Origin: Candidatus Magasanikiibacteriota bacterium
Lineage (GTDB): Bacteria > Patescibacteriota > Patescibacteriia > Magasanikbacterales > GWA2-37-8
DNA: 64,000 nucleotides
Direction of reading: 5' to 3'
Assembly: GCA_017991415.1 (NCBI GenBank)
Contig: JAGOQR010000001.1
Span: forward strand, 212,490 to 276,489
The notes beneath the pieces are model-generated. The model did no database searches and was not told where the DNA came from. It worked only from the letters and a program-made list of their open reading frames with translations. Both the position numbers and the translations under genes were made by a program. Shown here one piece after another: positions 3,496 to 47,644 of this stretch (positions are counted from its first letter, which is position 1; each line of letters begins with the position of its first letter).

Positions 3496-4020
3496 TTAGG
3501 TGTTACCTAAATTCTTACTGAGAACAGTAAAATCTTTACCCCACCAATGTTTTTTAAGAAGACCTTCCTGGGTATACCCCAAGCTTTTATAAAATTCAGG
3601 GGCCACCTCGGTAGTAAGCGTTATCTTGTGGCAGCCAAGACTAGCTAGCTCTGATTCAACTTTTTTTAATAAATTAGAACCGATTTTCTGTTTACGATAA
3701 TCACTTAAAACAAAAAGCCAATGAACTATGCCAATACTGGCATTATGACTGGCAATAATAAGACCTACGCACTTCCCACCAACTTTTGCTACAAAAATAG
3801 TTCTTTGCTTTCGTAAACGAGCAAAGAATAAACGACGCAAAGAGTTTTTCTTGATAATTCTTTTTTTTACCTGATCATTATAAAAAGAAAAGTCCGTAGT
3901 AACTGCCTGATCAAACAAAAATGGCAAAGAAAAAATATCCGTAATAGATGGCTTGCAAATGATTTGTTCGAGGGTATCTGACATAACTATAAGCAAAAAT
4001 TTTCCCGACTGGTTAGTCAA
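3496..4020 (-). CDS. GNAT-family N-acetyltransferase
   Basis: 174 aa with an acetyl-CoA binding-like segment (RKQKIGSNLLKKVESELASLGCHKITL). Confidence 0.65.
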   Translation of the reverse strand: MTNQSGKFLLIVMSDTLEQIICKPSITDIFSLPFLFDQAVTTDFSFYNDQVKKRIIKKNSLRRLFFARLRKQRTIFVAKVGGKCVGLIIASHNASIGIVHWLFVLSDYRKQKIGSNLLKKVESELASLGCHKITLTTEVAPEFYKSLGYTQEGLLKKHWWGKDFTVLSKNLGNT

Positions 4021-4026
4021 GATAGA

Positions 4027-5544
4027 TTAAACAAAGCCTGGGAAAAAATCGGTTTTAACCTGTCTTTTTGGCACTCCCATTTTTTGCAACATGTCTGTAA
4101 ATGTTGTTACCATGGCATGTGTGCCTGATATGTAAAATGTTCTTTCTTTATAATCTGACACAATTTTACTAATCATATCACTATCAATAAAACAATTCTC
4201 CCCTGTCCAATCTGCGGGGCACGGCTGATCGGTAACGGTATATATAGTCTTAATACCAAGCTCTTTTTCTGCCTGATCAAAAATGTCTTTATAAGCTATA
4301 TCACTCGGCGCTCTATTGGAATAAATCATAACAATATCTCTTTTTTCTTTTTTATCAAGCAAATACTTGATCATACTTCTAAAAGGAGTAATACCAATAC
4401 CGCCTGCCAAAAAAACTAACTTTGTATTTTTATTTTGAGGCATAGTAAAATCTCCTGCCAGCTGAGAAGCAACGATGGTATCACCTGGATTTAAAAACAT
4501 CATGGACTGTTTAAAGCTGCTCGAATTTGGATAAAATTTGATTCCTGCCATAATACCGTCTTCGGTAGGAGAAGATGCGATAGTAAAATAACGACGCATA
4601 CCGCGGATATCCTGAGATTCATGACCTAAAGTCCATTCAAGATATTGTCCTGGAACAAATGATAGTTTTTTTTCTGATTTAAACCAAAAATCATATACAC
4701 TGGTCGCCGATAAAATTTTTTCTTTAAGCTGTAAAACCAATTTTAATTTAGGGCTCACTACATACGAAAATACATTGCCTACAACAAGTGCTAATTCTGG
4801 AGTAAAATAAAAAGATCCAATGTGAACAGCGGGGTTAAATAATAAACCTACAAGCACACCATACATAATTCGCAAATTTCTCGTTGGTGGCGTGGTTGCA
4901 GGTTCGGTAAGCATAGCAAAACCAAAAAACAAAACTGGGGAGTAGAGTAATATCTTCCATAATACTGTTAAGGCGGCTGTACCGTTTAGCGCTCCGATAA
5001 GCACGGTAGAAATAAGCGCAGCTGCAAAAAAACTAAGTACCAAATCAAATCTTCTAATTTTTCTTACTACGAGCAATCCTCCTAAGAAAACAAACGGAAC
5101 CAAATAAACACTGCTAACCCACCAATTAGCAGACCGTCCAAGCGTAAGCATTGTGAGCGTAACAGCAAAAGCAGCGGGATTAAACAGGTGTTTTTTATTT
5201 ATAGCAAAAATATATTTCGAAGCCATTGCCCACACAGCCACCCATGCCAAAAACGGCAAATATTCTGTGGATCGCATCGGAGCCACAATAAGAATTAAGA
5301 AAAATGCTGTAGCATAAACTGATTCGATATTTGTTGGTGCACCAAAAACTCGAGCAAAAATAGCATTGACTACCAGACAGATAGCCAAAATAAAGACCGC
5401 GGAAGTAACCATTTCGACAGGAGTGTATGCTAGTACATTAAAAAAACTCAATACAAAACCAGCAAACCAAAGGCCTGATACATAATATAGTATCAATCGG
5501 TACATGGTAATTTGATTAAGCCACTTATCAATAAAGCTAAACAT
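4027..5544 (-). CDS. polytopic membrane protein fused to a C-terminal FNR-like FAD/NAD(P)-binding oxidoreductase domain
   Basis: 505 aa. About 8-10 TM helices N-terminally. C-terminal RRYFTIAS (RxYS FAD motif) and GGIGITPF (NAD-binding Gly motif). Only two His in the TM region, so not a classic bis-heme ferric-reductase domain. Confidence 0.6.
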   Translation of the reverse strand: MFSFIDKWLNQITMYRLILYYVSGLWFAGFVLSFFNVLAYTPVEMVTSAVFILAICLVVNAIFARVFGAPTNIESVYATAFFLILIVAPMRSTEYLPFLAWVAVWAMASKYIFAINKKHLFNPAAFAVTLTMLTLGRSANWWVSSVYLVPFVFLGGLLVVRKIRRFDLVLSFFAAALISTVLIGALNGTAALTVLWKILLYSPVLFFGFAMLTEPATTPPTRNLRIMYGVLVGLLFNPAVHIGSFYFTPELALVVGNVFSYVVSPKLKLVLQLKEKILSATSVYDFWFKSEKKLSFVPGQYLEWTLGHESQDIRGMRRYFTIASSPTEDGIMAGIKFYPNSSSFKQSMMFLNPGDTIVASQLAGDFTMPQNKNTKLVFLAGGIGITPFRSMIKYLLDKKEKRDIVMIYSNRAPSDIAYKDIFDQAEKELGIKTIYTVTDQPCPADWTGENCFIDSDMISKIVSDYKERTFYISGTHAMVTTFTDMLQKMGVPKRQVKTDFFPGFV

Positions 5545-5587
5545 ACAATTTATTTAATGGACCGCGCGCAATCCACGAATTAATTTA

Positions 5588-6331
5588 TTAAATTACATAG
5601 TTATTAAAGCCACTAGTCATGGTAGCGATACCATCTCTGCCTATCATATACCCTTCTAAACCTGGATAGGTTTCGATAAAACTAATACCTTTTCTTCCCA
5701 TTGCAAAAGCGGCGGTAGCAAATCGATCGGCTTCATACACATTTGACCCAATTACTGTAATACTAACGACATCGAGCAAATTATTTTTTCTATCATGTGG
5801 GTTATAAATATGCTGGCCTCTTATATATGTCCCCGATGTGGCCATACCCATATTATTAAGATAGATCGTTTTTACCACTTCTTTTGCATTAAAGGGATTA
5901 CGAATTCCTACTCGCCAATTTTCATTTTGATTATTTCGGCCACTTGCTTCTATATCGCCCCCTGCTTCTATATAAAAATTTTCAAATTTTTTATTTTTTA
6001 AAATACACGCAGCCCCATAAATAGCCCACCCTTTTACCAAACCAGACGGATCGTAACTACCATCGACACGCTGTATATCAAAGTATCCATTGGTTATCTT
6101 TTTTGTTTCTTCTGACAATCTCAAAACTGTTTTCATGTCAACGCTATACTGCTCTTCTATGATTTCTTTTTTATTTATTCTACTTATTTCACTATCAGTC
6201 TTATAGGTACTAAAAGTATTATCGATATAAGTAAAATAATCAAAAACTTCTTTTATATCTCCGGGGCCAACAGCACCATCTAGAACTGTTACTGTAATTG
6301 GCATTCCCATAAGATCTCTCGTTTCAAACAT
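5588..6331 (-). CDS. apbE: ApbE-family FAD:protein FMN transferase (flavin transferase)
   Basis: 247 aa carrying ApbE signatures (MGMATSGTYIRGQHIYNPHD; AGGDIEA). Confidence 0.8.
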   Translation of the reverse strand: MFETRDLMGMPITVTVLDGAVGPGDIKEVFDYFTYIDNTFSTYKTDSEISRINKKEIIEEQYSVDMKTVLRLSEETKKITNGYFDIQRVDGSYDPSGLVKGWAIYGAACILKNKKFENFYIEAGGDIEASGRNNQNENWRVGIRNPFNAKEVVKTIYLNNMGMATSGTYIRGQHIYNPHDRKNNLLDVVSITVIGSNVYEADRFATAAFAMGRKGISFIETYPGLEGYMIGRDGIATMTSGFNNYVI

Positions 6332-13741: not shown

Positions 13742-14639
13742 TTGAGAGAACTATAGAAGATAGCAAGGCAAACATAATGATAGCAAAAGACATAAGCGAA
13801 GAAATATGAAAATCAAATATGCCAGAAAGCATTTTTAAACCAATAAATAATAAGATAAATGCCAAACCTTTTTGCAGATGATGAAATTTATGAAGCACGC
13901 TTTCAATTAAAAAGAACAGGGCACGTAAACCCATAATAGCGAAAATATTTGAAGTAAATACGATAAAAGGGTGCTGCGAGATAGCAAATACAGCTGGGAT
14001 AGAATCAACAGCAAAAATAATATCTGTACCTTCTACTAATAACATAACTAAAAATAGCGAAGTGAGAACAGTTTTACCGCCTTCTTTAACAATAAAATGC
14101 CCACCATGATGATTTGGAGAAAATGGTAATAATTTTCTAGCCCATTTGATAATAAAGTTTTTTTCAAAATCAATATGTTCTTCTTTTTTATCTTGAAGCA
14201 ACTTAACGCCTGTATACAGCAGTAATGCGCCAAAAATATATAAGACCCAATGAAACTGACTGATAATAAGAGAGCCAAAGCCAATAAAAATTGCTCGAAA
14301 AACTATTGCGCCCATTATTCCCCAAAATAACACGCGATGATGGTATTTTTCTTCTAACTTAAAATAACTAAAGATTAACATAATTACAAACAGATTATCT
14401 ACCGAAAGCATCTTTTCTGTAACATACGCGCTTAAAAACTCAGCTGCTAATTCTTTGCTGAGGAATAAAAAAATTAAAAAACCAAAGCCAAGTGAAATTG
14501 CTACCCAAAATAAAGATTGATTAATCGCAGAACTCAGCTCAACTTTATGGACTTTACGATTAAAATATCCTAAATCAAGAGCCAAAAAACCAACAATAAT
14601 TATGCCGAATAATATCCAAAGACCGGTTTGAGCATCCAT
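13719..14639 (-). CDS. TerC-family integral membrane protein
   Basis: 306 aa, multi-TM, with the conserved TerC motif ...KMLSVDNLFV. Confidence 0.7.
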   Translation of the reverse strand: MDAQTGLWILFGIIIVGFLALDLGYFNRKVHKVELSSAINQSLFWVAISLGFGFLIFLFLSKELAAEFLSAYVTEKMLSVDNLFVIMLIFSYFKLEEKYHHRVLFWGIMGAIVFRAIFIGFGSLIISQFHWVLYIFGALLLYTGVKLLQDKKEEHIDFEKNFIIKWARKLLPFSPNHHGGHFIVKEGGKTVLTSLFLVMLLVEGTDIIFAVDSIPAVFAISQHPFIVFTSNIFAIMGLRALFFLIESVLHKFHHLQKGLAFILLFIGLKMLSGIFDFHISSLMSFAIIMFALLSSIVLSIVFPKKI

Positions 14640-14730: not shown

Positions 14731-14759
14731 TTGACAAAACAGCTAAAATATGCTATAGT
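14731..14759 (+). promoter_or_regulatory. consensus sigma-70 promoter TTGACA-N17-TATAGT
   Basis: TTGACA at 14731-14736, exact 17-nt spacer, TATAGT at 14754-14759. SD AAGGAG at 14771-14776 and ATG at 14785. Confidence 0.6.
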
Positions 14760-14784
14760 GGCTCCCAAATAAGGAGCCCTCGAA

Positions 14785-15006
14785 ATGAACGAACCCTTTC
14801 AACCCTTCGTCTGCGATTGGGACGATGAAAATCAGGGGATTCGTTTATTTGTCGAAGAAACCATCCCTCATTTTTTAATCGCGATTCTCATCGCAATTGC
14901 GCTAAAAAGGTGGAAATGGGACCCAAATCAAGAGCACGAAAAGGTCACTATTCCTACGGCACTCGCACCCCCAACCAGGAGAAGACGGTCATGGATCGAA
15001 TCTTGA
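14785..15006 (+). CDS. small hypothetical protein (first gene of GC-rich island A)
   Basis: 73 aa. Perfect SD AAGGAG 8 nt upstream. Contains one hydrophobic helix. Overlaps the next small ORF by 16 nt. Confidence 0.35.
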   Translation: MNEPFQPFVCDWDDENQGIRLFVEETIPHFLIAILIAIALKRWKWDPNQEHEKVTIPTALAPPTRRRRSWIES

Positions 15007-15221
15007 AGATTCTGGCAGTGATGGTTCTGGTGCTCGCAAGCATCATCGTCCTGTGCTACCTCTGCACGAGCGCCTACCTACTCGTCAACTGCCTGCTCTG
15101 GGGAGACGATGACCCCACCGCCATCGAGGAGATGTTCTCGATCCTTCTGAGCCTTGTTGTCGTTTTCAGCCTCGTTGCTGGGGCTGTGACGCACAGGCGC
15201 GACACGAACATGAAGGAATGA
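14991..15221 (+). CDS. small hypothetical membrane protein (second gene of GC-rich island A)
   Basis: 77 aa (MDRILKIL...) with two hydrophobic helices. SD AGGAGA upstream. GC-rich codon usage unlike the flanking genes. Confidence 0.35.
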   Translation: MDRILKILAVMVLVLASIIVLCYLCTSAYLLVNCLLWGDDDPTAIEEMFSILLSLVVVFSLVAGAVTHRRDTNMKE

Positions 15222-15247
15222 GGCAAGAGGAGAACCGCCTCCTCGCA

Positions 15248-15318
15248 CAAGCCACTCGGCAAGTCACCAAGTTTTTAATACGGATTGAAAGTTTGGTGAC
15301 GGGTGGCTTGTTTTTTTA
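15248..15318. terminator. rho-independent terminator (long interrupted stem plus T7)
   Basis: CAAGCCAC...GTCACCAA pairs with TTGGTGAC..GTGGCTTG, followed by TTTTTTT. Downstream of both island A (+) and the antiporter gene (-). Confidence 0.6.
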
Positions 15319-15321
15319 TAT

Positions 15322-21679: not shown

Positions 21680-23017
21680 TTATATAAAAAATAGATAGAT
21701 AGCGCTACTAAAAATAATGACCAGCGCAGAAATAAAAAATTTAAAAGCAAACTGTTTTGTGCCCTGCAAATAAGAATACACTGTTTTACTAATTAAATTG
21801 GTAGCATTTACTAAAATAAAAGTAATAAATGCAAATTCAAAAGTAATGCTATGCCCAGCCATATCAGCTAAATTTACTAGAATTGCATCAAGCCCAGCCA
21901 GCGATGCAATTACAGAACTAATGACAAACCCTGATTTACCAAAGACTAATAATGATACCTTTGTAATGATTTTTACTGCAATTAAAATGCCTGCAAACTT
22001 GAGCGCAGGCATTAGAGAAAATATTTTTGTTGGTTTTACTTCTTGGCTTGGCGATTCATCTGACTCCTTTTTCTTTAAAAGAACTAGAGCAATAAACCCC
22101 GCCACTAAAATCATCAGCAAAATGCTCGGAGCAATCGAAACAAGCCATTTCGGATTTAATGGACCTACCAATAAAAATATTTGCAAAAAACTGGCTAGGT
22201 TAGCAAGTAGCGCTGCCCCAACTAGATGATTGGCAAAAGAAGAATGCTTACTTTTTTGAGCAAGCGACTGAGTTGCAGAAGTAGAAGAAACAAACCCTGC
22301 AATAAAACTAGTAAGAGCAAACCCTTTTTTATTACCAATAATTTTTCCTAAAATATATCCAAATACATCAATGCCTGTAATAAGAACAACGATAAACCAA
22401 ACTTTACGTGGATTAATGAGTTCCAAAGCACTAAACTGTCCCATTTCGACACCTATACCATTTAGAATAGCTGGCAAAACTGGAAGATCAGAAAGTTTAT
22501 AAGCAACATCAGGCAGAAACGGTAAAACAACTAAAGCAATAACTGCATAACTAATAAAAGACTGTAACTCTTCTCGAGAAATACCAGCAATTAATTGACT
22601 GGTCTTGGATTTTACCGATAAGACAAGCATGAGAATAACAAAAACTGCAACAATTATCTGCAACGGAATAATATCGAGCACCAACAATAAGCCAATTAAA
22701 AAAGTAATAATAACCGAAAGTTCTGTAGTAAGACCGAAATCTTTGGTTACAGAGACACCAGATATATAGTACGAGATAAGTAGCACTAAGAAACCGCCTG
22801 CAATAAGCAGCGCTAAGGAAGCAAAATTATGTACAAAAAATATACCAACGAGTGCTCCGATGAGAGCAATAAGTGAATACGTACGAATACCGCCCAAGGC
22901 GCTAGGCCCTTGTTTACTACCTTCTCGCTCCAAACCAATGGTTGCTCCCAAAATAATTGCTAATACTAATTTAGAAAATAATCCTGTAAACATGCAATAA
23001 ATGTTATAATTTATCAA
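21680..23017 (-). CDS. MgtC/SapB-family membrane protein with C-terminal DUF4010-like domain
   Basis: 445 aa. N-terminal MgtC signature LAIILGATIGLEREGSKQGPSALGGIRTYSLIALIGA. Polytopic. Confidence 0.6.
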   Translation of the reverse strand: MINYNIYCMFTGLFSKLVLAIILGATIGLEREGSKQGPSALGGIRTYSLIALIGALVGIFFVHNFASLALLIAGGFLVLLISYYISGVSVTKDFGLTTELSVIITFLIGLLLVLDIIPLQIIVAVFVILMLVLSVKSKTSQLIAGISREELQSFISYAVIALVVLPFLPDVAYKLSDLPVLPAILNGIGVEMGQFSALELINPRKVWFIVVLITGIDVFGYILGKIIGNKKGFALTSFIAGFVSSTSATQSLAQKSKHSSFANHLVGAALLANLASFLQIFLLVGPLNPKWLVSIAPSILLMILVAGFIALVLLKKKESDESPSQEVKPTKIFSLMPALKFAGILIAVKIITKVSLLVFGKSGFVISSVIASLAGLDAILVNLADMAGHSITFEFAFITFILVNATNLISKTVYSYLQGTKQFAFKFFISALVIIFSSAIYLFFI

Positions 23018-23059
23018 TCTATTTTATATAAAAAAAATTTTACTGTCCAGGCTATAATA

Positions 23060-23092
23060 AAAATCACTTCGTACAATGTACGAAGTGATTTT
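23060..23092 (-). terminator. palindromic hairpin terminator (AAAATCACTTCGTACA/TGTACGAAGTGATTTT)
   Basis: 16-bp perfect inverted repeat with a T-rich stretch after it on the minus strand. Downstream of the island B gene. Confidence 0.55.
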
Positions 23093-23103
23093 ATATTTGG
23101 GAT

Positions 23104-23162
23104 TCTCCAGAGCGCTTCTGGGGCCAATTATTTTTGGCACAAGAAGCGCAAACTCTGGAGAA
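23104..23162. repeat. long imperfect inverted repeat (TTCTCCAGAGCGCTTCT ... AGAAGCGCaaaCTCTGGAGAA)
   Basis: About 18-bp stem with a 3-nt bulge and 21-nt loop, directly 3' of the high-GC gene. Possible terminator or recombination-site remnant. Confidence 0.4.
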
Positions 23163-23205
23163 TTTCTATTTCTCAAAGAGCGCGCTTACTGCTTAGCAAC
23201 CTTGA

Positions 23206-23847
23206 TCAGGCAGCCTTCTTGGAAGCGTTCTCCGACTCGCTGTTGAGGAGCTCGAGGATCGAGGCGAACTGCGACTCGCCGAGGCTGCCGCTCTTCCACT
23301 TGTTCTGGAGGAGCTGACCCACCGTCTGCTGCTGCCCCTTGGATCCGGTGCGGCATCGGAGGGCCTTGCCATCCGAGAGGTGGAACACCTCCGCGTTGCG
23401 GGGGCTGCCGTCCTTCTTGAGGACCAGAACCACCTTGATCACGCCGCACTGCCTGGCGAAGGTCCGCATGGACGCGAAATCCGGGGACCGAGCGGGCTTG
23501 ACGACCGAGGGGTTCGGCGACAGCGGCACGGGGCTGCTGGGGATCTTGACCTTGTTGCTCTCGACCACGATCTTGGGGTCGAACATGCGGAGCTTGGAGC
23601 CCTGGAGCTGGTTGTAGGCCCAGCGCGACACGCCGGGCATCCAGTTCTTGCACTGCTCGATGAGGATCGCCTCGCGCGAACCCGCGAACTCAACCGACTC
23701 GAAGCGGTTGTTGTGATCCACCCGGAACAGGCGCTCCACTCCCTTGAAGTACACGTAGGTGCCTCGAGACGAGGTGCAGGACTGACCGAGGTGGCGAGCG
23801 GGCAAGTTGTTCGTACGCTGCTTGGCGTGAACGAGAATCTTCTTCAT
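23206..23847 (-). CDS. hypothetical protein encoded by high-GC island B (foreign composition)
   Basis: 213 aa starting MKKILVHAKQRTNNLPARHLGQ.... ATG at 23847 with a perfect SD AAGGAG 6 nt upstream. GC-rich codons (GCC/CTC/GAG/CGC) in an AT-rich genome. The longer 268-aa ORF in the track runs through the leader and is unlikely to be the real N-terminus. No confident family match. Confidence 0.5.
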   Translation of the reverse strand: MKKILVHAKQRTNNLPARHLGQSCTSSRGTYVYFKGVERLFRVDHNNRFESVEFAGSREAILIEQCKNWMPGVSRWAYNQLQGSKLRMFDPKIVVESNKVKIPSSPVPLSPNPSVVKPARSPDFASMRTFARQCGVIKVVLVLKKDGSPRNAEVFHLSDGKALRCRTGSKGQQQTVGQLLQNKWKSGSLGESQFASILELLNSESENASKKAA

Positions 23848-24015
23848 CGTGATCTCCTTGGAACGAAACGTGGGCGGCGATCCCATAACAGGATCACCAG
23901 AAATGGTGCAGTAGTTTCTCTCTGATTTTGATGCCCAAAAAAGACAACAAAAACAGAGAGAAACAACGCGTATCTTTGAATTGTAAAGAAATTGTTGCCT
24001 AAAACGCAACAAAAC

Positions 24016-24044
24016 AATATACCATAAAAATCAACTTTTGTCAA
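24016..24044 (-). promoter_or_regulatory. consensus sigma-70 promoter TTGACA-N17-TATATT (minus strand)
   Basis: Minus-strand TTGACA at 24044-24039, 17-nt spacer, TATATT at 24021-16. AT-rich leader of about 165 nt to the ATG at 23847. Confidence 0.55.
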
Positions 24045-24081
24045 TGTACCCTAAAAAACAAAAGGAAGGACATTTACAAAT

Positions 24082-24840
24082 CTATGGAGCTTGAAAATTA
24101 GAAATTTTTTTAAACCGAATAATACTCGGGACTCTGCTATACCCTTCGTGCCAATATCCTTCCCCTTCCCAATTTTTATATATACCAGTCGAAGGACCCC
24201 CATCCAAATTAAGCGCAGCATCAAATTTTATCTGTAATGCCAAAATCTTATTCATCATCTCGTATAAACTAATCTCTGATAGACTTATGAGTATATACGC
24301 ATTCCCCACTACATCCGTAGCCAATACCGATCGATTAGCTTTTTTTCCCGAATCTTCACTCAGAGCAGGTTTTTCATGCTTAATAAGAAACGGATAGCTT
24401 TGGAGAGCAAATTCAAATGATTCATTTTCTTTAATTGGATCTGTGGCCAAATCGCGAATACTAACTACACCTTTTTTAATTACAAAAAGCCCACTCTTAT
24501 CCTGGTCAAACAATCTTTCGCCTATTCTTTTTCCATTAACTACCAAAAAACCAGAGGGAGTGTAATCTTCATTAAAAAATCCTCCGTTAATTACGATTTC
24601 TAAATTATCCGTTCTCCACTCTGATATATATTTTCCCTCTTTATCATATTCAATTTGAGCTGCATAGTTTTTTGGCTCTAATTTTACGACGAGCAAATCT
24701 TCTTGCTGACCAATAATTTTTTGAATAGATGAAATAGGTCCTTTAATATCTGGAACCTCGGGCACCGAACGCACAGAACAACCTGCCATAAGGAGCGACA
24801 TAAGAACAGAAAAAATAATAATTGCTATATTTATTTTCAT
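24082..24840 (-). CDS. phosphodiester glycosidase-family (DUF2233) lipoprotein
   Basis: 252 aa. Lipobox LLMAGCS. C-terminal NLDGGPSTGI motif typical of the phosphodiester glycosidase family. Confidence 0.5.
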   Translation of the reverse strand: MKINIAIIIFSVLMSLLMAGCSVRSVPEVPDIKGPISSIQKIIGQQEDLLVVKLEPKNYAAQIEYDKEGKYISEWRTDNLEIVINGGFFNEDYTPSGFLVVNGKRIGERLFDQDKSGLFVIKKGVVSIRDLATDPIKENESFEFALQSYPFLIKHEKPALSEDSGKKANRSVLATDVVGNAYILISLSEISLYEMMNKILALQIKFDAALNLDGGPSTGIYKNWEGEGYWHEGYSRVPSIIRFKKISNFQAP

Positions 24841-44150: not shown

Positions 44151-44179
44151 TTGACAGTCCGTTCTTTTTATGCTACACT
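44151..44179 (+). promoter_or_regulatory. consensus sigma-70 promoter TTGACA-N17-TACACT
   Basis: TTGACA at 44151-44156, 17-nt spacer, TACACT at 44174-44179. About 115-nt leader. SD GGAGAG 6 nt before the ATG at 44293. Confidence 0.5.
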
Positions 44180-44292
44180 CATCGGCTATATTGGTTCAGG
44201 TTCTATATCGATGTCTGTGGCGAATACCACGGAAATCGGTAGGGGTCTGACCCCTAACTACTCGACCACACATCAACATCGGAGAGATCGTC

Positions 44293-44850
44293 ATGGTGAA
44301 TACCTGCCGCAGCTTCGGCTGCATCCTGCTGGCCCTGGTCATCCTTGGTGGCTGCGGCTCGACCGACAAGCCGACCCCAATCTGCGCCCTCATCAGCGTC
44401 AACCCCAACACGCCGATGGGTAGCCAGATCGGACCCGGCGGCACGTGGGATCCGAAGGGAGAGGCCCAGACGGTCCTAGCCTTCACAATGTTCAGGGTGG
44501 ACGGCGAGGGCTGCCAAACGGCAACTTTCACCGGTCTACCCATGAGGGTTGACCCGAACACAAGCCAGTTCGTGATCGGCCGAAACTTCAGACTCGTCAG
44601 CGAACTGAATGGCCGCCTCGTCGATATCTCGGTCGGCACAATCATGAGCGACGGGAAACTCAACGTGAAACTCCAAACGAGAGAAAATCTCGAAAAAGGC
44701 AGCCGCTACTTTCAACTGCACCTGGACACGAGCAGCGCGCAACGTGGCGACAAGCTCGCTATCATCAGTGGCGCCGTCGAGTACGAGATCAGCGGGAAGA
44801 AGTTCACTTCGTACCAGCTGTGGTACGCGCCGCCACCGATCGAATACTGA
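44293..44850 (+). CDS. lipoprotein of unknown function encoded by high-GC island C (foreign composition)
   Basis: 185 aa. Signal peptide plus lipobox LVILGG|CGS. About 60% GC with GC3-rich codons. No recognisable domain. Confidence 0.5.
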   Translation: MVNTCRSFGCILLALVILGGCGSTDKPTPICALISVNPNTPMGSQIGPGGTWDPKGEAQTVLAFTMFRVDGEGCQTATFTGLPMRVDPNTSQFVIGRNFRLVSELNGRLVDISVGTIMSDGKLNVKLQTRENLEKGSRYFQLHLDTSSAQRGDKLAIISGAVEYEISGKKFTSYQLWYAPPPIEY

Positions 44851-44870
44851 TCAGACCACAAGGTCAGATC

Positions 44871-44923
44871 AACTGAACGGCTCGGATTCGCTCACGCGAC
44901 CGAGACGGTCAGACTTCATCCGA
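44871..44923 (+). terminator. 15-bp perfect inverted repeat (CTGAACGGCTCGGAT ... ATCCGAGCCGTTCAG) 3' of the island C gene
   Basis: GC-rich stem with a 23-nt loop. No immediate T-run. The AT-rich repeat terminator follows at about 45085-45112. Confidence 0.4.
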
Positions 44924-45029
44924 GCCGTTCAGATAGTGCAGTAATTTCTTGCTACATTATCTGAGCTCGGATGTTATAAATAACATAAATTTAAAAACAA
45001 CCTTTTAACAGATGGTTGTTTTTATTTTA

Positions 45030-45145
45030 AAAAATACAAATAAATAAAATTCGAACATCCAATAAACGTCAATTCAAAAACCCGCATGGTTAGCGGGTTT
45101 TGGATTTATGCTCCGTTTGTGGAACGATGTTAGAAATTTTCTCAA
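45030..45145. repeat. full-length copy of the tRNA-Asn-flank-derived repeat (AAAACCCGCATGGTTAGCGGGTTTT hairpin plus GATTTATGCTCCGTTTGTGGAACGATGTTAGAAATTTT)
   Basis: Hairpin identical to that 3' of tRNA-Asn. The flanks also match the tRNA downstream flank (GAATTGACGTTTATTGG... vs GTATTGACCTTTACAAGG...). Confidence 0.65.
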
Positions 45146-47400: not shown

Positions 47401-47511
47401 GTTTGTTAGCTACATCGCAATAGTATCATACTAACCCAAAATACAAAAGGTTCTAACGCCTTGTAAAGGTCAATACAAAAACCCGCATGGTTAGCGGGTT
47501 TTTGATATGAG
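47401..47511. repeat. master copy of the repeat: 3' flank of tRNA-Asn (tRNA end GGGAGCTCATATC plus AAAACCCGCATGGTTAGCGGGTTTTT terminator plus TTGACCTTTACAAGGCGTTAGAACC)
   Basis: The dispersed repeats reproduce the last bases of the tRNA acceptor arm (GGAGC-aCATATC) and about 100 nt of its downstream flank. Confidence 0.6.
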
Positions 47512-47583
47512 CTCCCGGGGTCAGATTCGAACTGACGACCAATTGGTTAACAGCCAACTGCGCTACCGCTGCGCTACCCGGGA
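47512..47583 (-). tRNA. tRNA-Asn (anticodon GTT)
   Basis: Minus-strand cloverleaf. Acceptor TCCCGGG/CCCGGGA, D-arm GCGC-AGCGGTA-GCGC, anticodon loop CTGTTAA, T-arm GTCAG-TTCGAAT-CTGAC. CCA not encoded. Confidence 0.8.
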
Positions 47584-47644
47584 ATTTAGGGTGGAAATAC
47601 TATAATATTTTCCACCCAAATTGTCAATACAGAATTACTATTTT

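Follow-up and report, generated by a model that had tools for sequence, protein, structure and literature searches.

A GC-rich gene cassette with conserved structured RNA ends in a Magasanikbacteria contig

The stretch of DNA studied here, referred to as the window, covers 64,000 nucleotides (nt) of contig JAGOQR010000001.1 in a metagenome-assembled genome of Candidatus Magasanikbacteria (GCA_017991415.1), an uncultivated, AT-rich bacterium of groundwater; protein P0001 is likewise a 'Candidatus Magasanikbacteria' protein. On the minus strand, at 24044-23052, lies Island B, a cassette of about 1 kb consisting of a promoter, a leader, an open reading frame (ORF), a hairpin and a terminator. Its neighbours in the window encode MgtC, a phosphodiester glycosidase (NAGPA), a MarR-like protein and a P-type ATPase, all of them cellular and none of them phage genes. 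The ORF has a GC content of 0.63 compared with about 0.36 for the window, and GC climbs from about 0.30 to 0.60-0.70 over roughly 23900-23100.

Layout of Island B and its relatives

A sequence-only reading, made without database searches, had proposed a promoter of the form TTGACA-17-TATATT upstream of the ORF. This sigma-70 promoter is present at 24044-24016 on the minus strand, with the -35 element TTGACA at 24044-24039, a 17-nt spacer and the -10 element TATATT at 24021-24016. With a TG at 24024-24023, it is of the extended -10 type. It matches 11 of 12 consensus positions, has the top promoter score of the region and is predicted to start transcription near 24009. If one mismatch at most is allowed, TTGACA-N14-TGNTATANT is found four times in the window, compared with 0.21 expected from shuffles. 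The three remaining copies precede two more GC-rich islands and, at 47599-47627 (minus), the tRNA-Asn(GTT) gene at 47511-47583 (minus). Because the same promoter type drives a tRNA gene, the island promoters are of the organism's own strong housekeeping type.

The Shine-Dalgarno (SD) sequence AAGGAG (23859-23854, minus) lies 6 nt upstream of an ATG at 23847, which opens a 642-nt coding sequence (CDS) of 213 amino acids (23847-23206, minus; stop TGA at 23208-23206). These features, with the N- and C-terminal sequences quoted for the protein, are as the sequence-only reading gave them. A GGAG-type SD is kept in all loci, and start codon and SD are kept in all relatives; ATG 23847 is the true start. 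A 268-amino-acid ORF that extends through the leader had been suspected of being artefactual. The leader carries in-frame stops in seven of ten loci and its indels are not multiples of three, so the longer N terminus is an artefact. A role of the leader as an N-terminal extension or a leader peptide is rejected on the same stops. The NCBI gene model, KBC69_01285 (226 amino acids, annotated as a hypothetical protein), begins at ATG 23886, 13 codons upstream of the conserved start, where the two closest relatives have ATA (L002) and GTA (L001). Judged by these codons, the NCBI start is not conserved and is too far upstream. On the opposite strand, a 181-amino-acid ORF (23380-23925, plus) spans Island B. 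It sits in the register in which sense NNS codons give no stops, and is thus a by-product of GC richness at third codon positions and not evidence of a gene.

Close homologues of the protein are few: only two were found among 5.8e9 protein clusters. A profile search of 1.84e9 representatives added eleven distant relatives (E-values from 2.5e-24 to 4e-4), giving 13 clusters in all, and the lowest identity to the window protein in the family alignment is 19%. A word-indexed profile search recovered four proteins. Scanning genome contigs with a leader 19-mer returned one true locus (L014) and 15 chance matches, a gapped leader pattern gave only chance matches in metagenome contigs, and two scans of viral contigs gave no match. 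We read the DNA around eleven of the family's clusters; the relatives are loci L001, L002, L003/L004, L005, L014, L022-L024 and L036-L038. All 11 related loci are AT-rich, with flank GC of 0.29-0.48. One of them, L022 (DATION010000002.1, GCA_035473115.1), which carries P0014, is labelled Candidatus Udaeobacter sp., of the Verrucomicrobiota. It has 38% GC, a Patescibacteria-like gene content and a Magasanikbacteria-type cassette, and is probably mis-binned or misnamed.

The promoter, in the form ATTGACAAA...TG(G/C/A)TATA(T/C/G)T, is found in every locus that reaches far enough upstream (L002, L003, L005, L014, L022, L023, L024, L036, L037 and L038). Eight related loci were measured for the spacing between the -35 element and the ATG, which is 196-202 nt in seven of them and 101 nt in L023. 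Nine loci share the leader, and of the nine with a readable 3' end eight share the 3' hairpin, with a related terminator after it. In L023 the leader is short and the hairpin is another one, and L038 differs at its 3' end. Synteny with the window is seen in L002, where the phosphodiester glycosidase gene is upstream and MgtC downstream; other loci have differing genomic contexts, and rplU and recR flank the gene in L022 and L023. In L034 (1352-3237), MgtC directly abuts the MarR-like gene, and NAGPA and the Island B cassette are both absent, a difference of about 1.9 kb.

Comparison of the window with L002 gives nucleotide identities of 91% for promoter plus leader, 94% for the 3' untranslated region (UTR) and 73% for the ORF, with 54-56% for the protein; outside the promoter and terminator, this syntenic pair is 84-87% identical. 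For L003 and L036 the corresponding values are 85%, 87%, 60% and 37%, and the flanks are unrelated (45-48%). Conserved ends beside unrelated flanks indicate that the unit of inheritance runs from promoter to terminator, about 1 kb. In these alignments, the non-coding ends are better conserved than the protein.

The leader and the 3' untranslated region

The leader had been described as an AT-rich stretch of about 165 nt. It is present, at about 162 nt, but it is a conserved structured RNA rather than a mere AT-rich spacer. It folds at -57.5 kcal/mol (z = -5.0 against shuffles). We derived its structure with RNAalifold from ten loci and then counted pairs against slid-partner controls and 500 shuffles. 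Alignment cells were paired in 96.6% of cases compared with 44-56% with slid partners, and two-sided pair changes numbered ten compared with one to three. None of the 500 shuffles reached the observed values.

Three hairpins belong to this predicted fold, all on the minus strand. P1 (GUUGC...GCAAC, 24010-23992) would stand at the very 5' end of the transcript, and three of its six pairs show compensatory changes (AU<->GC, CG<->UA and UA<->CG). P2 is a long hairpin, UUUCUCUCUGUUUU...AAAAUCAGAGAGAAA (23967-23911), located by an inverted-repeat search and RNAalifold; it has 16 pairs, four of them changed on both sides, and 98.8% of its cells are paired. P3, GGUGAUCCU-GUUAU-GGGAUCGCC (23898-23876), lies 16 nt upstream of the SD and has nine pairs, three changed on both sides. 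The predicted P1, P2 and P3 hairpins are backed by covariation.

Between P1 and P2 lies an unpaired, U-rich and nearly invariant motif, UUUCUUUACAAUUCAAAGA (23991-23973, minus), which has a single copy in the window. L002, L003, L005, L014, L024 and L036 carry it unchanged, L037 has one change, and L022 and L038 differ at its 3' end. A predicted fifth helix pairs its UCUUU with the GGAG of the SD; it is 98% paired over ten loci, with one-sided variation between U-A and U-G. Because this helix varies on one side only, we put forward SD sequestration as a hypothesis and not as a result. The motif is a candidate anti-SD sequence or a candidate ribosome standby/S1 site. Neither the leader nor the 3' hairpin matched Rfam 15 at gathering score, and only four tRNAs pass in the window. 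A permissive Rfam search of 22500-24600 gave only chance hairpin-type matches, far below threshold.

The 3' region of Island B folds at -62 kcal/mol (z = -8.05 against shuffles). Its features, on the minus strand, include a spacer, AAGCAGUAAGCGCGCUCUUUGAGAA (23194-23170), that is similar to the 3' arm of the hairpin that follows. The spacer is kept in L001, L002, L005, L014 and L024 and partly kept in L003, L036 and L037. The hairpin itself (23163-23102; AUUCUCCAGAG-UUU-GCGCUUCU...AGAAGCGC-UCUGGAGAAU) has about 22 bp and a 3-4-nt bulge, with no U-run after it. It corresponds to the interrupted inverted repeat reported earlier, which spans 23102-23163 with arms at 23102-23112/23153-23163 (11 nt, 100% complementary) and 23112-23127/23134-23149 (16 nt, 88%). 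Both arms are nearly invariant across nine loci, and in L014 one C-G pair has become U-A by a compensatory change (TTCTTCAGAG/CTCTGAAGAA). The hairpin also follows members of this gene family, without exception and directly on the 3' side, in eight other loci. Its sequence is kept far better than that of the protein, which suggests that a conserved cellular factor recognises it or that its exact shape matters. We do not think that it is bound by the protein encoded upstream.

The perfect 16-bp palindrome of the sequence-only reading (23060-23075/23077-23092) is followed by a T-run, UUUUUAUU, and forms an intrinsic terminator at 23092-23052 (minus). The terminators of other loci have a common GTACA..TGTAC core with stems altered in a compensating way, and the terminator therefore belongs to the module. 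A promoter-like TGGACA-17-TAAAAT (23021-23049, minus) lies between this terminator and MgtC. It is kept in L002 and may be the MgtC promoter.

The protein, its codon usage and substitution rates

GC by codon position in the ORF is 0.56/0.43/0.90, with periodicity in this frame alone, and indels between relatives within the ORF are multiples of three. An AlphaFold2 model, the check that the sequence-only reading had suggested, is confident, with a mean predicted local distance difference test score (pLDDT) of 80.0 from 13 sequences (54.6 from 3 sequences) and 88-97 in the C-terminal domain. It has two domains, residues 12-90 and 120-205, separated by a disordered Pro/Ser linker and followed by a long C-terminal helix. 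Both modelled domains consist of four strands, two helices and a fifth strand. Although their predicted topologies agree, a detectable duplication was rejected (hhalign E = 0.11, not significant). The ORF from 23847 is a real coding sequence and, according to the model, encodes a folded two-domain protein of a new family.

The sequence-only reading could assign no family to the protein, and we matched no known family or fold either. Searches of the window protein and all 13 members against Pfam, PHROGs, PADLOC and NCBIfam gave no family match; the best PHROGs match (E = 0.1) is noise, and a profile search of the PDB gave no match (E = 0.45). The earlier speculation that the N-terminal part is a phage-type DNA-binding or anti-repressor-like fold fared poorly. 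No helix-turn-helix or other DNA-binding fold was detected, tblastn against phage and plasmid collections found no match, and the best BFVD Foldseek match of the model is not significant (E = 0.086). No N-terminal hydrophobic stretch suggesting a signal peptide was seen by eye, no prediction tool having been used.

The protein ends in ...KKAA. Nine of the 13 members end in -AA and 11 in Ala, after a polar tail; P0013 and P0014 lack this tail. ClpXP recognises the ssrA tag (...LAA-COOH), and the shared -AA ending thus suggests a built-in degron. Unlike the ssrA tag, this tail is gene-encoded and not added by transfer-messenger RNA, and the residues that precede it differ. A weak family match, P0012 (118 amino acids), carries three tandem copies of the 20-residue NNLPVRHLWQRCTNANTIDV, which resembles the family's N-terminal motif NNLPARHLGQSCT. 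The tail after the repeats looks AT-rich, and P0012 may reflect either a faulty assembly or a genuine expansion of the repeat.

Codon usage in Island B is the mirror image of the genome's. GC content at third codon positions (GC3) is 0.90 in the ORF compared with about 0.30 in host genes (0.25-0.34). In every member read it is 0.67-0.96, for proteins down to 19-37% identity, compared with 0.27-0.41 in neighbouring genes. Members at 20-37% protein identity retain a GC3 of 0.86-0.96. Lys is encoded by AAG at a frequency of 0.97 in the island family, where host genes use AAA at 0.88, and Phe by TTC at 0.97, where host genes use TTT at 0.94. ATC accounts for 0.97 of Ile codons in the family and 0.12 in host genes, and CAC for 1.00 and 0.31 of His codons. 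The GC contents of the codon positions correlate across genomes, and a GC3 of 0.9 therefore carries an expectation for the first and second positions (GC1 and GC2). Family GC1 is 0.52-0.61 and GC2 0.37-0.44, and the residues GARP and FYMINK (one-letter codes) make up 0.256 and 0.255 of the family compared with 0.213 and 0.318 in the host. GC1, GC2 and amino-acid usage are close to the host's and far from what a genome with GC3 of 0.9 would be expected to have. The choice of C versus G in four-fold codon families also tracks the host's (r = 0.91, n = 8).

Between the window and L002, the flanking genes, compared over 72 and 59 codons, have synonymous divergence (dS) of 0.66-0.80 and non-synonymous divergence (dN) of 0.015-0.048, whereas the Island B ORF has dS of 0.13-0.30 and dN of 0.16-0.37 (dN/dS about 1.2). 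Relative to the flanking genes, its synonymous sites evolve 2-5 times slower and its amino-acid sites 3-25 times faster. Three close sequences agree at 80 of the 96 synonymous third positions that can be compared. When every third position of these three is counted, there are 41 S>S, 24 S>W and 5 W>S changes (S, G or C; W, A or T); the genome's own equilibrium is AT-rich. The GC richness extends into a short untranslated stretch after the stop codon. Selection of the CDS for a specific RNA fold was rejected, with z = +0.8, -2.2 and -1.0 against codon-shuffled controls.

Origin, possible function and sister cassettes

We favour, with roughly even confidence, the interpretation that Island B is a self-contained cassette confined to Magasanikbacteria-like Patescibacteria and long kept there, and not a recent insert, a recombination site or a phage remnant. 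The GC richness would then be upheld by selection on the message or its decoding rather than handed down from a GC-rich donor. An atypical base composition is commonly taken as a sign of foreign origin, as in the word island itself. A recent transfer from a GC-rich bacterium, phage or plasmid, in which the gene came to lie behind a promoter already in place and has still to drift towards the host's composition, would account for a GC of 0.63 against 0.36 with sharp borders, for an orphan gene of patchy distribution, and for the lack of Island B and NAGPA in L034. However, no homologue of matching composition turned up in a GC-rich context: the 11 loci are AT-rich with the same promoter, and there was no phage, plasmid or viral-contig match. 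GC3 has stayed high in proteins that are only 19-37% identical, GC1, GC2 and amino acids are near the host's and unlike those of a 65-70% GC genome, and the C-versus-G choice follows the host's. Instead of ameliorating, the silent sites are more conserved than those of the neighbours. Persistence, rates and host-like GC1 and GC2 all contradict a recent insertion, which we consider largely refuted and improbable. As for the composition, the chief competing explanation is GC-biased gene conversion at a diversifying, often replaced locus, with the UTRs as homology arms and the composition itself unselected. Conserved ends around a hypervariable centre, dN/dS near 1, raised GC past the stop codon and modestly raised GC1 and GC2 would fit, and Patescibacteria are generally believed able to take up DNA. 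We rate it lower, as an unlikely though serious alternative, because the GC3 shift of about 60 points far exceeds any biased-conversion effect in bacteria that we know of, and because the AT-rich leader within the same recombining unit stays AT-rich.

Island B might also be a mobile gene cassette whose 3' inverted repeat is a recombination site, such as an integron attC, an att site or an end like that of a miniature inverted-repeat transposable element. The imperfect hairpin with its one-sided 3-4-nt bulge directly after the ORF superficially resembles a folded attC, and the module has differing contexts in different genomes. The sequence-only reading had named 23104-23162 as a candidate att site and proposed a search for further copies. 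That search, made in the window, found a single copy and no array, and its tie to one gene family and the compensatory change in L014 also speak against such a site. attC sites have a GTTRRRY core and conserve structure but not sequence. In contrast, the arms here are nearly invariant in sequence over nine loci, and no GTTRRRY core was seen on reading the hairpin borders. An integron cassette is a promoterless ORF with an attC behind it, in an array beside an integrase. Unlike this, the module owns a consensus promoter and a terminator, its neighbours are MgtC and the phosphodiester glycosidase (the whole window was not screened for an integrase), and hairpin and terminator both fall within the predicted transcript. 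No terminal repeats or target duplications were seen at the module borders, and we hold this explanation to be very improbable. Hardly more can be said for an accidental ORF in stop-poor GC-rich sequence whose product is a long structured non-coding RNA. In its favour, both strands carry overlapping long ORFs (181 amino acids on the plus strand, 155 and 84 in other frames), the protein is less conserved than the UTRs, and dN/dS is near 1. However, the antisense ORF is expected from the NNS register, three-base periodicity is strong and confined to one frame, indels are all in frame, and start, SD and stop are conserved. Profile searches find protein-level relatives down to 19% identity, the model reaches a pLDDT of 80 from 13 sequences, the CDS is no more structured than codon-shuffled controls, and Rfam has no match. 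This leaves the non-coding explanation barely credible. A prophage-derived DNA-binding or anti-repressor protein has an equally slight probability: the promoter-ORF-terminator unit of atypical GC between unrelated genes is moron-like, but the PHROGs, tblastn and BFVD searches found no phage relative, no DNA-binding fold was detected, and the neighbours are not phage genes.

Phage morons are autonomous promoter-ORF-terminator units in lambdoid prophages. Island B resembles them in its single ORF, its own sigma-70 promoter and intrinsic terminator, its atypical composition and its unrelated neighbours. It differs in lying outside a prophage without phage homologues, with copies between rplU and recR in L022 and L023, and in having a long conserved structured leader and a conserved 3'-UTR hairpin. 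Its atypical composition also persists over a diverged family and appears to be selected instead of being a trace of foreign origin.

The consensus promoter of Island B would yield an abundant, long-lived monocistronic mRNA, shielded by the 5'-terminal P1 and the large 3' hairpin from 5'-end-dependent and 3'-exonucleolytic decay. Known mRNA stabilisers that work in this way include the 5' stem-loop of Escherichia coli ompA and the STAB-SD and 3' 'positive retroregulator' hairpin of Bacillus thuringiensis cry genes. Island B is like these in having P1 at the predicted 5' end and a large 3'-UTR hairpin before the terminator of a strongly promoted monocistronic gene. It is unlike them in that there is no sequence relationship and in that not only the shape but also the sequence of the 3' hairpin is conserved, pointing to a specific partner. 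Translation may be gated by the U-rich tract, which would either mask the SD or act as a ribosome standby site. The predicted pairing of UCUUU with the GGAG recalls SD-sequestering leaders (fourU and ROSE thermometers, riboswitch platforms), and the alternative, with an unpaired U/A-rich tract on which ribosomes land upstream of a structured ribosome-binding site, recalls the standby site of tisB. Unlike in SD-sequestering leaders, the pairing is long-range (about 140 nt), shows no two-sided covariation and has no Rfam match, and the known ligand or temperature logic does not apply.

Translation would further lean on G/C-ending codons that are rare across the remainder of the genome. Because these codons are avoided elsewhere, it could depend on little-used tRNAs. 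The tRNAs of the window that read G-ending codons only are Thr-CGT and Gly-CCC. In GC-rich Streptomyces, the bldA tRNA and the rare TTA codon provide codon-dependent translational control, and codon-biased stress regulons are also known. Island B is similar in using genome-avoided codons. It differs in that these are GC-ending codons in an AT-rich genome, in that about 90% of codons are involved rather than one codon, and in that no evidence links a tRNA to it. The product may be short-lived, given its ssrA-like C-terminal Ala-Ala. The outcome would be a conditionally made, fast-evolving accessory protein under tight control. Its likeliest role may be in conflict or stress, that is, in defence, counter-defence, host-cell interaction or dormancy. 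Fast amino-acid evolution, patchy presence and changing genomic position point to such a role without proving it.

Several observations weigh against this interpretation. Where transcription starts, how stable the mRNA is, whether translation is gated and how fast the protein turns over are all predictions from sequence, and the case for a conflict or stress role consists only of fast evolution, patchy presence and tight control. The flanking-gene rates come from only two short comparisons, and if lineages have exchanged the cassette, part of the low dS could stem from that. Strictly synonymous changes in the three closest sequences number 10 S>W and 1 W>S, and some ongoing decay is therefore possible. 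Because the CDS is no more structured than codon-shuffled controls, any selection at the RNA level would act on composition and not on a specific fold; because the GC-rich stretch continues past the stop codon, nucleotide-level selection is no worse a fit than codon-level selection. The 3' hairpin is missing from L023 and L038, and the leader of L023 is short, so these elements are not obligatory for the family. The predicted anti-SD helix lacks two-sided covariation, and is weakly testable in this way since U pairs with both A and G.

We rate Island B as outside the known kinds. It brings a structured 5'-UTR RNA motif with covariation support, a sequence-conserved 3'-UTR hairpin and a two-domain protein fold family, all three new and all from a phylum with almost no characterised gene regulation. 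If selection does maintain its composition, Island B would be a natural case in which selection on synonymous composition overrides a strong AT mutation bias. A codon usage opposite to the genome's would then have been kept through deep divergence, with silent sites more constrained than amino-acid sites. Filters that remove GC outliers as 'contamination' or 'islands' from Patescibacteria bins would discard such genes.

Two further GC-rich islands in the window follow the same plan. In Island C (44151-45030, plus), a consensus promoter at 44151-44179 is combined with a conserved leader that has no relation to that of Island B. Its 185-amino-acid ORF (44293-44850, plus) is lipoprotein-like, with the lipobox LGGC and a GC3 of 0.78, and is followed by a conserved GC-rich hairpin (GGCTCGGA..TCCGAGCC) and an AT-rich terminator. 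All parts are kept in the homologues P0016-P0018 (L032, L034 and L035). Between the window and L034, the proportion of synonymous differences (pS) is 0.34 in the Island C ORF compared with 0.70-0.74, which is saturated, in housekeeping genes. The promoter of Island A (14731-15320, plus), at 14731-14759, is of the consensus extended -10 type, and an SD is present. A 73-amino-acid ORF (14785-15006) overlaps a GC-rich 76-codon ORF (14991-15221) with a GC3 of 0.77, whose product looks like a small two-helix membrane peptide; a hairpin and T-run follow at about 15250-15320. Since Islands A and C show the same pattern, Island B is one instance of a wider habit of these genomes.

A bolder proposal is that Islands A, B and C belong to an undescribed class of 'codon-inverted' Patescibacteria cassettes, with GC3 of about 0.75-0.95 held by selection in genomes of 36-40% GC, which together form a translational regulon on little-used tRNAs. 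Each cassette would be an insulated unit of promoter, leader, ORF, hairpin and terminator, and the regulon would mirror the bldA/TTA control of Streptomyces at the scale of whole genes, linked to new cis-acting RNA elements. We offer it as speculation and think it rather unlikely. A radical version, in which the messages or genes would be adapted to being decoded inside a GC-rich host cell, receives next to no weight from us. Literature searches on GC-rich or codon-atypical genes in Candidate Phyla Radiation bacteria or Patescibacteria returned nothing relevant and no codon-inverted cassettes. GC-elevated spots were also seen in two of the other loci. In L032, a 300-nt bin with GC of 0.63 at about 13800-14100 coincides with a 108-amino-acid gene (13853-14179), and in L014 a 718-amino-acid gene (3514-5670) with GC of 0.50-0.53 lies directly upstream of that locus's cassette.

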